This document shows, in pieces, positions 20,574 to 27,340 of a DNA stretch of 64,000 bases (positions are counted from its first letter, which is position 1; every line of letters starts with the position of its first letter). The notes beneath the pieces are model-generated. The model made no database searches, was not told the origin of the DNA, and saw only the letters and a list, made by a program, of their open reading frames with translations. A program made the translations under genes and the position numbers. The stretch is from an uncultured Clostridia bacterium (GTDB lineage Bacteria > Bacillota > Clostridia > TANB77 > CAG-508): positions 73,986 to 137,985 of the forward strand of contig CAKPOF010000002.1 in the NCBI GenBank assembly GCA_934169725.1. The letters are read 5' to 3'.

Positions 20574-21839
20574 TTATTTTATAAGTTGGATCTCGTTGGG
20601 TGTAATTTTTTTGAGATTCAACTTTTTTATTACTCTTTTGTCTAAATTGAATTTTGCTACATCTATTGGTGCAAACCAATTTAAGCTTTCTCTAGATAAG
20701 CTATTAATATGACTTAGCATTAAATCAATATCTGTTTGTAACAGATTATCAAAGGATGTTCCTTTTGGTAGTACATATCTGATAAATTCATGATTTTTTT
20801 CGATCATTCCTTTTTGATATGAAGCTCTAGGATTACAGTAAAAAATTCTAGTTCTTCCAATTCCTTCATCGTTAAATTCTAAAGATAAAGGATCTCCAAA
20901 TTCAGTTCCATTATCAGTTAAAATTATTGGAAAAGTCTTTTCAAAGAGTTCACTACCAAGTTCATGTTCAAGCATATTAAAAACTCTTAAAACTTCTTTT
21001 TGAGTTTTTTCAAATAAAATAAATGCTAGCATTAATCTGGAATTTCTAAATAAAAATGTAAGTAAAACTTTGCCACCTTTAGACCCTTCAACCGTATCCA
21101 TTTCTACTATAGGTAAATCTGTATGTAGTTCAATGTATTTTTGAAAATCTTCATAAGTACGATTAGTTCTAGCATAAGTATCTTTTGGTTCTAATCTTCT
21201 TTGTTTACGCTTTTTCATTTTAACTAATCTAGGTAAGTCAATATTTCTTGCAGAAAGATAATTTTTAGAGACATAATTATATAAAGTAGCACGAGTACAA
21301 GGTAAATCGTTTGTTTTATAAATATGAGAGATAGATTGTCCTTTTTTTATCAGAGGAGATACAATTCTATCTAAATTTGAGAGTTCTAGTTCAGTTAAGT
21401 TAATACCTTGTCGAGACTCAGAAAGGAGAGTTTTGTAAGCATTAAAAGAAGGCAAAGCTCTATAATAAAATTTAGTTAGTTTACAGCTGAATTTTTCAGT
21501 GCAACCATTACAAACATAAGGTGCATGATTTAGCTTAAAGCAAGTACCATCAACAAAATCAGAGCAAACCTTATTGCAATAATTACAATGTCTACATTCT
21601 TTTGAACAGTGTGTTTTACAAAGATTATGTCTATGGCAATTATATTTTTTAGCACAGTGGTTAAAATTAACGTGAACAGATTGACCTTCTTTTCTTATCC
21701 TGTGTTTTCTAACTTCTTTAGAAATAGTAGTTGGATCTTTAGATAAATATTGAGCGATTTCTCTAAAGCTAGTATTTTTAGCTAGTTCCTGTTCTATAAA
21801 GTTTCTTTCGTCTAAAGTTAAATGTTTATTCTCATTCAT
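20574..21839 (-). CDS. IS30-family (DDE) transposase with an internal Cys-rich insertion; element ends not identified
   Basis: N-terminal HTH (LTLDERNFIEQELAKNTSFREIAQYL), DDE region VEMDTVEG...ILTDNGTEF. Start MNENKHL is preceded by ggagg. Cys-rich block CAKKYNCHRHNLCKTHCSKECRHCNYCNKVC. Confidence 0.75.
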   Translation of the reverse strand: MNENKHLTLDERNFIEQELAKNTSFREIAQYLSKDPTTISKEVRKHRIRKEGQSVHVNFNHCAKKYNCHRHNLCKTHCSKECRHCNYCNKVCSDFVDGTCFKLNHAPYVCNGCTEKFSCKLTKFYYRALPSFNAYKTLLSESRQGINLTELELSNLDRIVSPLIKKGQSISHIYKTNDLPCTRATLYNYVSKNYLSARNIDLPRLVKMKKRKQRRLEPKDTYARTNRTYEDFQKYIELHTDLPIVEMDTVEGSKGGKVLLTFLFRNSRLMLAFILFEKTQKEVLRVFNMLEHELGSELFEKTFPIILTDNGTEFGDPLSLEFNDEGIGRTRIFYCNPRASYQKGMIEKNHEFIRYVLPKGTSFDNLLQTDIDLMLSHINSLSRESLNWFAPIDVAKFNLDKRVIKKLNLKKITPNEIQLIK

Positions 21840-22079
21840 AAGATACCTCCAAAACACTCCAAACACAGTATCTTACTTATATTTTATCATTTTTTTGTAC
21901 AAAACTAAATTCAGTACATACTAAAAGTGGAATTTAAAAATAAAATTAAGGAACGAAAAAATACTTTTTGTAAAATATTGCTAATTCACATAAAATGAGC
22001 TATAATAAAAGTATATTTTGATTTGTTGAATATATGGTTTCATTTCAAAAAAATATTATTTTTTAAGGAGGACAAATTT

Positions 22080-22928
22080 ATGAGAACATTGGAAATGAAA
22101 ATCGCAATTTCTGAAGTAAAAGGTGGACGGTGTGTATCAACAGAAATGAAGGATGGCTACATTCTGGCAAAATTCGAAATTGAGGAAGAAACAGAAAAAA
22201 TTGAGGAAGAAACAGAAAAAATTGAGGAAGAAACAGAAAAAAATGAGGAAGAAACAGAAAAAAATGAAACTTCTTCTATTTTTGAAAGCGAACTGGAGTG
22301 CAGGATAGATCCGAACCTTTTTGCAGGTGAATGGCTAAATCATCAGCCAACTACATGGAGACAAAAAGAAACACTGAATCTATATCTGGATGCAAAGGCT
22401 AAAGGCAGGCTACATGCTTTTACTTGTATGACAATTGATCCGTCTGATAAAGATGGAAAGTTGGTATATCAGAAAGGTCTGGAAATAAAATCAGGATTTT
22501 CTCAGAAACAATGGGAAAAGATGCTGAAAGAATACAATCCAAGTCGTAATAGTCGACAGATGACTAGAACGGAGTATGCATGTAGAAACCTATTTCTTAT
22601 TCAGAGGCTTGTGGAGTCTGGTTATGAAATCAAAGAAGCATGGAGAGCAGTATGTGATGATTCCGGAAAAATTGGTCATTATCGTAATTTTGATAATATT
22701 AAATATTATTTTGAACCAACAGGTAGCCGAGAAGTTTGTGGATTTTGCGATTTGGGTAATGCTTGGAAGTTCATTGCAAACGATCCATGGGATTTAGCTG
22801 TTGGTTTTTGGGCCGCTGGTGGTACCTATAATGGCTATGGCAACTTCGGTCCTGTGGCTGACCTACGTCGCAACCGCTATGAAGACGCTCGCTACAATAA
22901 TGGTGTTGGTATGCTTGCGCTTGATTAA
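22080..22928 (+). CDS. Candidate DGR target (variable) protein; GC-rich, with a VR-like C-terminus
   Basis: RBS aaggagg; the 3' 120 nt is rich in xAC/xGC codons (acc tat aat ggc tat ggc aac ttc ... cgc aac cgc tat gaa gac gct cgc tac aat aat ggt) encoding ...GGTYNGYGNFGPVADLRRNRYEDARYNNGVG; followed by a hairpin, avd and an RT. Confidence 0.6.
   Translation: MRTLEMKIAISEVKGGRCVSTEMKDGYILAKFEIEEETEKIEEETEKIEEETEKNEEETEKNETSSIFESELECRIDPNLFAGEWLNHQPTTWRQKETLNLYLDAKAKGRLHAFTCMTIDPSDKDGKLVYQKGLEIKSGFSQKQWEKMLKEYNPSRNSRQMTRTEYACRNLFLIQRLVESGYEIKEAWRAVCDDSGKIGHYRNFDNIKYYFEPTGSREVCGFCDLGNAWKFIANDPWDLAVGFWAAGGTYNGYGNFGPVADLRRNRYEDARYNNGVGMLALD
22179..22262 (+). repeat. Four tandem 21-bp coding repeats (EEETEKI) within the target gene
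   Basis: attgaggaagaaacagaaaaa three times, then aatgaggaagaaacagaaaaa. Confidence 0.9.
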
Positions 22929-22959
22929 AGTAGCACTGACCACTGTATTTTCAAGAACG

Positions 22960-22988
22960 AGATGGAATCTGCTTTGTGGGTTCCATCT
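22960..22988 (+). other. Stem-loop immediately 3' of the VR-like region (position of a DGR IMH-associated hairpin)
   Basis: agatggaatc tgctttgtg ggttccatct. Confidence 0.5.
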
Positions 22989-25161: not shown

Positions 25162-25632
25162 AAATGTAAAAAAAATAAAAAAGTTGCACTATTTGTAGAT
25201 ATGGACGGAACTATTGTCGAATATAGAGTTTTTCCAGAAGGACATGTAACAACTGAAACTAAAGAAGTATTTTTGAACGCACAACCACTAAATGTTGTAA
25301 TAGAAAATTTAAAAAGAATAAATGAGATAGAGAATATTGATATATACATATTAGCATTATCAAGAAGTAATATTATTGTTAAAGAAAAAAAGCAATGGTT
25401 GAAAAAATATGTACCATTTATAAAAGAGGAAAATTATATTATTTTAAATAAAGAAAAAGGGGATTATAATTCAGAAAATAGGGAAGTTATAAAAAGCATA
25501 AAAATGAAAGAAAAATTGAATAAATATAATTTTGCTATTCTTTTAGACGATGAACATAAAATTTTAAAGAGAACACAAAAAGAGTTAAATACTGATGGAA
25601 TGGTTTTTCACATTTCATCTGCAATATTATAA
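25162..25632 (+). pseudogene. HAD-superfamily 5'(3')-deoxyribonucleotidase-like gene lacking a usable start codon
   Basis: KVALFVDMDGTIVEY (DxDGT motif) but no in-frame ATG/GTG/TTG after the upstream stop at 25156; an ATG in another frame at 25137. Confidence 0.45.
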
Positions 25633-25871
25633 ATAGTTTATAAGGAGACTAACTATGAAAATTATACAAGATATGAACAAATTAAATCAGTATTAACAGA
25701 ACATGCCGAAACTGAACAATTAAAGAAATTAGAGGAGATACAAAGAGTTTTTAAAGAAGAAGAAAATGAGGTAATAATCTATGAATGGAAAAAGTTGGTG
25801 TTAGAATAGATATATGGACACATTTAATGAGAGAGTGTATAATTAATTATGTACACTAACTTAAAAGGAGT

Positions 25872-26150
25872 GTGTCAGAAATGGCAAAAAGAAAAGTATA
25901 CGATGAAGATTTTAAAAAGATGATAGTGGAATTGTATGAAAGCAAGAAACCAGTATGTGAAATAAAACGTGAATATGGCTTAGTAGATGCAACAATTTAT
26001 AGATGGATAAATGAATATGGAAAAATAAAAACAGAAACAGGAGAAAGTACAAGCAATCATGAAATGAAGAAACTTAAAAAAGAAAATTTGAAATTAAAAG
26101 AAGAATTAGAAATACTAAAAAAAGCGATTGCCATATTCACGCCAAAATAG
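25872..26150 (+). CDS. IS3-family transposase OrfA
   Basis: MAKRKVYDEDFKKMIVELYESKKPVCEIKREYGLVDATIYRWI...KLKEELEILKKAIAIF. Confidence 0.8.
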   Translation: MSEMAKRKVYDEDFKKMIVELYESKKPVCEIKREYGLVDATIYRWINEYGKIKTETGESTSNHEMKKLKKENLKLKEELEILKKAIAIFTPK

Positions 26151-27015
26151 AAGATAAGGTAAAATTTATAGAAAATAATAGAAAAGCACATGATGTTAGA
26201 ACAATGTGTAAAGTGCTAGGGATAGCACGTTCCGAGTATTATTATCAAAGAAACAAAAAGAAAAATAGATATAAAGAAGCAAATGAACAATTAGATAAAG
26301 AAATACTAAAAGAGTATGAAAATTCAAAAGGAAGATATGGTTCGCCAAAAATCCAAAAGCACTAGAAAAAAGAGGAATAAATGCAAGCCAAAAAAGAGTA
26401 GCAAGAAGAATGAAAAAAATGGGGCTAAAATCAATAATAGTGAAAAAATACAGACCGAGTGGAAGTAAAGGAAAGGTAGATGATACAAATAAGCCAAACT
26501 TATTAGCTCAAAACTTTAAGGCAGAAGGATTACGAGAAAAACTAGTATCAGATATAACATATATTTATACAAAGGAAAAAGGATGGACGTATTTAGCGAT
26601 AGTAATGGATTTATACAGCATGAGCATAATAGGATATAGCTATGGAGATACGACGGATGCAGAACTAGTAATAAAGGCAATACAAAACGCAAGGAATAAA
26701 GGAAAATTCAAAACAGGAGCAATATTTCATAGCGATTTAGGGAGCCAATATACTTCTAATAAAGTTGAGAGATATCTCAAAGAATTGGATTTAAAGCATT
26801 CATACAGTAAGAAAGGGTACCCATATGATAATGCGAGTATGGAGAGCTTTAATGCAATTTTAAAAAAAGAAGAAGTAAATTTACATGAATATAAAACATT
26901 TGAAGAAGCAAGAAGAGTAATATTTGAATTTATAGAAGGTTGGTATAATCGTAGAAGAATCCACTCAGCTATAAATTATAGAACACCATATGAACTAGAA
27001 CAACAAGCAGTATGA
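26150..27015 (+). pseudogene. IS3-family transposase OrfB (DDE integrase), N-terminal part broken by a frameshift
   Basis: Intact core ISDITYIYT...FHSDLGSQYTS...YDNASMESFN...RIHSAINYRTPYE. Upstream the frame is lost near 26350 (PKIQK H*), beyond the programmed slippery site. Confidence 0.65.
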
Positions 27016-27340
27016 AAGAAAAATGAAATACTATTAAAAAATAAAAAAATTCTCAAAAAAAGTGTCCAAAAACTTGACATAGATCCAAAGATTAACAGTA
27101 AAGAAATATAATAGAACTAGAACGAATAAGATTTTTCTAATTTTTATTTTCCATATTGATAGTTTTATAGAAGAATTAAAAAATGAAAAAGAAAATAATA
27201 TAGAAGGACCACGAGTAAGTTGTATAAATTTTTTACAATATTTAAAATGTGTTCTATCAACATCAAGATATATAGTTGATAAAGCGTTTGTTAAAACTTA
27301 TACAGAAGATGGTAAAATTAATATTTCAAGTAAAAGATAT

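Follow-up and report, generated by a model that had tools for sequence, protein, structure and literature searches.

The 64,000-nucleotide window analysed here (contig CAKPOF010000002.1 of assembly GCA_934169725.1, positions 73,986 to 137,985 of the forward strand) comes from a spore-forming, uncultured member of the Clostridia, is low in GC (~25%), and holds an island of eroded mobile-element genes between the sporulation gene yunB and the ribosomal protein gene rpsI. On the + strand, spoIIID, sipL and yunB lie to the left of the island, and rpsI-rplM converge on it from the right, with rpsI (28276-28677, - strand) intact at 133 aa. The nearest genomes in the species-representative collection are human-gut metagenome-assembled genomes labelled uncultured Clostridia or Clostridium, in which YunB is 49-77% identical. 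Synteny with these relatives is lost after the end of yunB and regained exactly at the rpsI stop codon, and these limits of homology define the variable interval as 20205-28275 (~8 kb).

The original prediction, made from the letters of the window, had placed the island at 20574-27050, described it as consisting only of fragments, and taken an IS30-family and an IS3-family insertion sequence as its borders. All of the items that it listed are present, each with a significant family match; however, its limits were too narrow, for the debris reaches 28275, and the two insertion sequences are not the borders, which are instead marked by a 12-bp direct repeat resembling an attachment site (att), with one copy beside the yunB terminator and the other over the rpsI stop codon. 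Likewise, the description as fragments does not apply to the IS30 transposase, the target gene of a diversity-generating retroelement (DGR) and its accessory gene avd, the three uninterrupted open reading frames (ORFs) of the island.

Border repeat, right arm and cargo of the interval

The borders of the island, and the parts that adjoin the right border, are the following.

20209-20240, no strand: bidirectional terminator hairpin after yunB (terminator scan)
20244-20255, + strand: attL core ATATTATCTCTT, a second copy, away from the gene, of the end of rpsI (its final two codons and stop)
27086-27925, + strand: 3' 70% of a DUF6076-like gene, residues 126-404 of a 404-aa protein (tblastn), within which an ORF is called at 27341-27925
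27926-28272, no strand: right arm of the integrated element, with 97% nucleotide identity to relatives L112 and L116
28208-28234, - strand: replacement rpsI terminator within the right arm (terminator scan)
28273-28284, + strand: attR core ATATTATCTCTT, overlapping the rpsI stop codon and last two codons, where the step in identity between element and core genome falls

The repeat ATATTATCTCTT has only two copies in the window when both strands are scanned (20244 and 28273), against an expectation of 0.13, and no shuffled sequence gave two. In relatives L003, L007 and L010, a hairpin equivalent to 20209-20240 abuts the rpsI stop codon, and the left repeat copy is placed after the yunB hairpin exactly as the rpsI stop codon is in these three genomes; the hairpin is therefore the ancestral terminator that yunB and rpsI once shared, now left on the yunB side. 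The repeat pair, together with the displaced terminator, is the signature of a site-specific integration at the rpsI 3' end. A longer, 27-nt form of the left-junction motif, ATATTATCTCTTTGkwAATTACAAATG, recurs downstream of yunB in relatives L009 (two copies) and L004 (one copy), a pattern that would be expected from the tandem accretion of related elements. The att pair had at first been sought in another repeat, of 51 nt and imperfect (20297-20347 and 28126-28176, 78% identity); the exact 12-mer was preferred to it, being the one at the break in synteny.

The right arm points to the kind of element involved. From 27086 to 28285 the window is 97-100% identical to L112, and the same is true of the portion covered by L116, whereas the neighbouring rpsI and rplM genes are only 81-89% identical to those of L112; such a difference argues that the right arm derives from an element shared horizontally between species. 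The ORF at 27341-27925 is 96% identical to residues 211-404 of protein P0279, and its frame has no stop codon as far back as 27086 (residue 126). Between yunB and rpsI, relatives L112-L115 carry the full-length 404-aa gene in the rpsI-proximal position and, with it, genes for a tyrosine recombinase and a DUF927/HTH_56 protein, and L116 carries the 404-aa gene and the DUF927 protein on a locus that ends before the recombinase. The recombinase of L112 is called at just 218 aa, and this copy may be damaged. A resemblance of the window ORF at 27341 to a DUF6076-like gene of contig L020 was set aside as it is confined to a CxxC..F(I/V)PS motif, and its Pfam match to DUF6076 does not reach the threshold. 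In L112, the tract left of the integrase/DUF927 element (positions 1-5400) holds two short tyrosine-recombinase ORFs, DnaB_C and DnaJ_C pieces, an ADP-ribosylglycohydrolase gene, and a 62-nt repeat after two of the short genes (2583-2644 and 3106-3167); it could represent a further accretion array or have a cassette-like organisation.

On this evidence, 20205-28275 is read, at a probability of about 80%, as a composite, no longer mobile relic of mobile elements whose site-specific integration targeted the 3' end of rpsI. The identities of the parts, their truncations, the borders, the polymorphism among strains and the synteny of the hotspot are matters of observation; the role of a tyrosine recombinase as maker of the repeat, and likewise the order of events, we infer. 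Several points weigh against this reading. The integrase is gone from the window, leaving the recombinase behind the repeat postulated and unobserved: profile searches of the ORFs and frames of 20205-28275 revealed no recombinase, and those of the island ORFs and frames revealed no relaxase, coupling protein or other mobilisation or conjugation domain. A core of 12 bp is short for an att site, and a search for att repeats of the L112 element, including a matching left copy, found none. Moreover, the cargo of L003 and L010 sits between yunB and the terminator, away from the rpsI stop codon, which implies that more than one insertion route feeds the interval. Finally, a template repeat or an integrase lying outside the visible 64 kb may act in trans.

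The interval itself behaves as a hotspot. In L007 it is empty, with yunB and rpsI ~60 nt apart. L003 has two genes, one for a truncated superoxide dismutase and one for an ORF6N protein with a match to PADLOC candidate PDC-S05 (1.8e-119); L008 has both of these genes as well as an MBL hydrolase and a Schlafen-type protein, on a contig that ends before rpsI; L010 has an LlaJI-type restriction pair; and in L005 a nucleotidyltransferase (PDC-S09) is found among other genes downstream of yunB, with rpsI outside the locus. None of these five relatives shares cargo with the window. Because the site is either empty or filled with unrelated cargo in relatives, it is a true hotspot, and the insertion and erosion that had been predicted for it were borne out. 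Nor did synteny reveal the same ORFs intact across relatives, as would be expected of genuine short genes: conservation of the fragments does not extend beyond the species, and each of them lacks part of what its intact homologues elsewhere have.

Hotspots for the integration of defence and accessory genes between conserved core genes are known from the pan-genomes of E. coli and Pseudomonas. The yunB-rpsI interval is similar to them in its conserved flanking core genes, its variable content, and the restriction and candidate defence genes of its relatives, but the content of the window differs in being almost entirely pseudogenes with one defence-related fragment. PADLOC matched only an AbiEii fragment and a reverse transcriptase stub in the window, with no complete defence system, and the island is not a defence island by content. 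The proposal that former defence modules had passed through is weak for the window, in which AbiEii is the only recognised defence or toxin piece, the DGR derives from conjugative elements, and the NrtR, HAD and maturase parts are not defence genes; at the same site in relatives, defence cargo does occur.

Remnant of a diversity-generating retroelement

The left part of the island contains three co-oriented genes of a DGR, of which the last is cut short.

21962-22928, + strand: DGR target gene (ORF 22080-22928, 282 aa) with its own promoter and ribosome-binding site, and a variable region (VR) at ~22800-22925
23018-23377, + strand: avd, the DGR accessory gene (PF22296 (bAvd), 3.8e-16; phrog_3206, 3.4e-14)
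23370-23600, + strand: stub of the DGR reverse transcriptase (RT), residues 1-77 of ~337; the ORF continues beyond the homology to 23630

The target gene is preceded by a promoter-like TTGCTA-17-TATAAT and a ribosome-binding site AAGGAGG, and its nucleotide homology to other loci begins at ~21962-21973. The protein belongs to no Pfam family and has 109 homologues; in an alignment of 21 homologues, hypervariability is concentrated in the C-terminal ~40 aa, GG.Y......PVADL......V......GVGMLALD. The VR could be aligned to the 127-nt template repeat (TR) of an intact relative, L117, with mismatches mostly at TR adenines. Downstream, avd is uninterrupted, with a 2-codon (6-nt) deletion in the window strain when compared with other strains, and the RT stub begins 8 nt before the avd stop codon. 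The stub matches phrog_1423 (2e-20) and is 67% identical to the 337-aa RT of L020, over residues 1-78 only.

In the intact relatives L117 and L120, an Avd protein 93% identical to that of the window is followed by a 337-aa RT, and the target gene is present as two tandem copies in L117 and as one copy in L120. Their neighbours, which include ParA/ParB, Toprim, NikA-like and relaxase genes, place these intact retroelements on conjugative elements. In L117 (4084-7505), the two 127-nt VRs have the same sequence and share 86% identity with the TR, which starts 7 nt after the RT stop codon. No TR or second VR copy is found within the 64-kb window, though the TR directly follows the RT in intact relatives. 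The window remnant resembles DGRs of the Bordetella phage BPP-1 type (Wu et al. 2018, PMC5758913) in its C-terminal variable region, its Avd protein and an RT start that overlaps the avd stop codon, and its gene order follows the target, avd, RT and TR order of L117 and L120; unlike a working DGR, however, it has an RT cut after residue 77, no TR and a frozen VR, and its relatives reside on conjugative elements, not on phages.

The VR is identical in four strains of the species, as expected for a dead DGR. Elsewhere in the target gene, a 21-nt tandem repeat at 22173-22269, encoding EEETEK(I/N), is present in 4, 4, 2 and 3 copies in the four strains, and homologues from other species have one copy or none. 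A phage origin of the DGR was considered and rejected: the target gene and Avd had no match in IMG/VR or in the phage collection, and only the RT stub matched viral contigs, the best being L020 at 67%, which has no TR matching the window VR. On L020, the contig of the viral collection with this closest RT, positions 1633-4837 carry a DUF6076-like gene with a CxxC..YFVPS motif and a large serine recombinase; the contig may represent an integrative element and not a phage. A hairpin at 22960-22987, downstream of the VR, folds no better than shuffled sequences (z = -1.1) and was not used as evidence.

The target family also occurs at five other sites (L011, L013, L014/L016, L017/L018 and L100-L104), whose contexts are after spoIIIAH, after dprA, after a hydrogenase operon, within an ArdA/Mu-like element, and next to RhuM. 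At four of these five sites the target ORF is intact, and the L100 set has a fusion between the C-terminal half of the target and Avd; at all five, avd and the RT gene have been deleted, in different ways and independently. Between loci, the part of the target outside the VR has a ratio of non-synonymous to synonymous substitution rates (dN/dS) of 0.14-0.36. Within the species, the target gene and avd together show 0 synonymous and 9 non-synonymous changes, against 18 synonymous and 4 non-synonymous changes in flanking core genes, a count that comprises sipL, rpsI, rplM and murJ and leaves out yunB (0:3). Thus, the target gene and Avd give no sign of purifying selection within the species.

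These observations might be taken further, to a view in which the DGR target is kept on purpose, intact and with its promoter, after the loss of its diversifier in six independent contexts (the window, L011, L013, L014, L017 and, in part, L100), with its scaffold under purifying selection between loci, gut Clostridia repeatedly "freezing" useful variants taken from conjugative elements, and the rpsI 3' end being used in this clade by a family of tyrosine recombinase/DUF927 elements as an attachment site not described before. Such a combined view is unlikely. The repeated survival of the target without its RT is a small lead on DGR evolution.

Other fragments, insertion sequences and strains

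The rest of the island is made up of the parts listed below.

20504-21909, - strand: IS30-family insertion sequence with an uninterrupted transposase ORF (20574-21839/21866)
23603-24055, + strand: C-terminal fragment of an NrtR-type regulator (NrtR_WHD, 7.2e-22; NF050029, positions 130-224 of 245)
24058-24372, + strand: HAD-like gene fragment "X", 56% identical to the C-terminal half of P0111, from YDWTDEERMNFINKYF to KDVAIEKFNEE
24369-24533, + strand: last ~55 codons of a group II intron maturase (~40 group II RT/maturase matches, 60-79% identity)
24522-24841, + strand: AbiEii toxin remnant starting at about codon 103 (PADLOC PDLC02288, 7.6e-21, profile positions 94-211 of 294)
24866-25057, + strand: 63-aa ORF with no family or homologue found in profile and homologue searches
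25137-25632, + strand: HAD phosphatase gene, NT5C-like or PNK-phosphatase-like, with its 5' end out of frame
25633-25806, + strand: short open frame without a start codon, with no known relatives in profile and homologue searches
25815-27068, + strand: IS3-family element with ends TGGACAC...GTGTCCA, orfA at 25872-26150 and orfB at 26126-27015

Five pieces, from the RT stub to the AbiEii remnant, follow one another almost without spacing. The NrtR fragment, which overlaps the ORF of the RT stub in another frame, retains the winged-helix domain and has lost the Nudix domain. The region beyond it had been read as a nucleotidyltransferase toxin split over three frames; the toxin is indeed there as the AbiEii remnant, but 24058-24533 consists of a HAD-like fragment and a group II maturase C-terminus. 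The HAD-like fragment contains two frame changes and its 3' end is cut. The maturase fragment is 85% identical at the nucleotide level to positions 1676-1840 of L121, and an Rfam scan of 19500-29500 returned nothing at E<=1, thus no intron ribozyme or other known RNA. When compared with L122, the AbiEii remnant, which also aligns to P0110 and P0112, bears deletions of 18 and 28 nt, insertions of +1 and +2, and a premature stop codon, and runs through at least three frames. It resembles AbiE systems (AbiEi/AbiEii, a type IV toxin-antitoxin acting in abortive infection) in that the middle of the nucleotidyltransferase toxin is recognisable and its closest relative, L122, has AbiEi directly upstream; it differs in that the window has no AbiEi partner, its place directly upstream being taken by the maturase and HAD-like fragments, and in that ~100 N-terminal codons are missing, which, with the indels and the premature stop codon, makes it a pseudogene.

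Adjacent pieces overlap by 4-12 nt, for instance by ~12 nt at the maturase/AbiEii junction (24522-24533) and by ~4 nt at the HAD-like/maturase junction (24369-24372). Junctions so seamless, between pieces that are all co-oriented and of which two of five are retroelement genes, could in principle mean that the mosaic at 23370-24850 arose by RT template switching between mRNAs, with the DGR or intron RT producing a chimeric cDNA that was then integrated. This origin is highly improbable: ordinary illegitimate deletion within an array of co-oriented genes also yields microhomology junctions in a single orientation, the later frameshifts and internal deletions in the pieces fit slow decay, and neither poly-A, a signature of target-primed insertion, nor an intron ribozyme is present. 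In addition, the independent and differing deletions of avd and RT at the other target loci indicate that deletion is frequent in this DGR family.

In the HAD phosphatase gene (25137-25632), the first ATG in frame (25201) comes only after the DMDG nucleophile motif, and the start is likely at 25137, in another frame. Its matches are weak: NT5C at 3.3e-5 (just below the cut-off), a PHROG polynucleotide kinase at 1e-4, P0158 at 32% identity and, in a search of PDB sequences, only 5'(3')-deoxyribonucleotidases at E ~0.07. A PDB sequence search with the other of the two HAD-like pieces gave no match. The frame at 25633-25806 is, in strains without the IS3 element, in frame with the truncated 404-aa gene, with one stop codon between them.

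The IS30 transposase matches NF033563 at 5.5e-26 and 91.8 bits (cut-off 80) and HTH_38 at 1.1e-14, and only a weak inverted repeat is seen, at 20504-20539 and 21874-21909. A lookup of the exact protein for further copies returned this site alone, and one contig breaks inside the element. Strain L105 differs in this gene by 20 synonymous and 9 non-synonymous changes, and this mostly synonymous ratio is as expected of a working gene; the IS30 transposase alone looks functional in the island. At 20741-21309, L105 shows 29 differences in 570 bp (~5%), mostly synonymous, within surrounding DNA that is near-identical, which suggests that this tract of L105 was converted by another genomic IS30 copy.

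The IS3-family element has orfA in frame 0 and orfB in frame 2, a -1 arrangement with an A-rich slippery site and an overlap at ...CTAAAAAAAGCG...; a second frame change interrupts orfB near 26355, and the repaired OrfB forms one continuous match to NF033516 (2e-92). The element is absent from strains L105 and L108; where it is present, the IS3-bearing segment 25819-27078 replaces ~46 nt of the empty site, and no target-site duplication is apparent when the window is compared with the empty site of these two strains. It had been a candidate for the cause of the 5' truncation of the 404-aa gene and was rejected: in the IS3-free strain L105 the remnant of that gene spans residues 108-404 (tblastn), and the gene is thus already cut at codon 108 where the IS3 element is lacking, which makes the latter a late addition.

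The damage recurs across assemblies. L001, an independent metagenome scaffold, is 99.99% identical over 20.7 kb; L105-L108, assembled in other projects, carry the same ORF fragments; and the same structure is found in at least five independent assemblies. The island is fixed within the species, as judged from L105-L108, and so is IS30, with IS3 in some strains only. It might still be argued that the frameshifts and truncations are assembly or homopolymer errors in an intact accessory island, as several of the frame changes fall in or beside A/T runs (25160-25180, 26350-26365 and 24668-24672). There is next to no chance of this: frameshifts that recur in independent assemblies are not sequencing artefacts, neither the structure nor the lengths of the called ORFs change between projects and assemblers (L001, L105-L108 and L109-L111), and the damage consists mainly of large truncations and multi-nucleotide deletions rather than single-base errors. 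Among four strains, not one difference is found over the 2.5 kb of debris at 23294-25817, and the flanking core genes carry single-nucleotide polymorphisms; this invariance probably stems from patchy recombination tracts.

Another possibility is that the short ORFs are genuine small genes under selection, such as a stand-alone winged-helix regulator of the NrtR type, a DGR-target protein that no longer varies and a HAD enzyme with a shifted start. The identity of 23294-25817 in four strains speaks for it, as do the promoter-like sequence and ribosome-binding site that the DGR target retains, the survival of the target ORF elsewhere at sites where avd and RT have been destroyed, and the dN/dS of 0.14-0.36 between loci. 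However, with an overall divergence as low as 0.1-0.5%, and patchy, identity among the strains carries no information, and essential parts are gone: the Nudix domain, ~100 N-terminal codons of AbiEii, and the HAD catalytic Asp, which lies upstream of the only start, quite apart from the frameshifts and stop codons. The 0:9 ratio of the target and avd within the species, set against 18:4 in core genes, the loss of two codons from Avd in the window strain, and the absence of these ORFs from the yunB-rpsI site of other species point the same way, and such a role for the short ORFs is accordingly regarded as improbable.

Proposed accretion and decay, and related elements

For the integrated remnant as a whole, the following history is proposed. 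In the ancestral state, yunB and rpsI would have converged on one shared terminator, ~60 nt apart. An element with a tyrosine recombinase would then have recombined at a core overlapping the rpsI stop codon, an integration that would duplicate the 12-bp core (attL at 20244, attR at 28273), leave the old terminator with yunB, and give rpsI a new one. Cargo may have accumulated thereafter, to include a DGR of the conjugative-element type, an NrtR-type regulator, two HAD phosphatases, a group II intron, an AbiEi/AbiEii pair and the DUF6076-like end gene. Decay would have proceeded by deletions that joined the pieces seamlessly at short A/T-rich overlaps, and by frameshifts, several of them beside A or T runs. 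Lastly, IS30 would have become fixed in the species, and IS3 would have inserted in some strains only.

With the recombinase, the template repeat, the antitoxin and an intact toxin all gone, nothing in the island works as a system. By its content, it does not qualify as an integrative and mobilizable element (IME), having no integrase, or as a DGR, having no full RT and no TR; nor is it an AbiE system, a group II intron or an NrtR regulator. It is an ordinary scar of accretion and decay of a well-known kind, found in another clade, and not a working system.

In streptococci, IMEs and integrative and conjugative elements (ICEs) with tyrosine integrases integrate at the rpsI 3' end, where they undergo tandem accretion and frequently have decayed partners (Coluzzi et al. 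2017, PMC5357655). The island is similar to these streptococcal elements (e.g., IMESag-rpsI) in that the 3' end of the S9 gene is targeted and the gene remains intact, short repeats form the borders, several generations of cargo stand side by side, and partners have decayed; similarly, relative L112 retains a tyrosine recombinase at the same site. Unlike them, it belongs to an uncultured, 25%-GC, spore-forming gut Clostridia host, no integrase or relaxase was found in the window, and the L112-type element differs from the streptococcal IME module in its DUF6076-like end gene and its DUF927 partner protein.

For annotation, the ~8 kb, in which gene callers report some 13 "hypothetical" ORFs, are debris of pseudogenes, and the organism should be credited with no defence or retroelement capacity on their account. 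The island documents an rpsI-3' integration site with a defined 12-bp core for a lineage of uncultured gut Clostridia, and provides a worked example of accretion followed by decay; it opens no long-standing question.

Outside the island, the murJ-like gene at 29351-30989 shows a frame change near codon 430, and its end is shared with another, overlapping ORF (30597-30989). The orthologue in L003 likewise stops at about codon 433, in sequence that there looks out of frame, and the arrangement could be either a shared frameshift or a genuine split gene.

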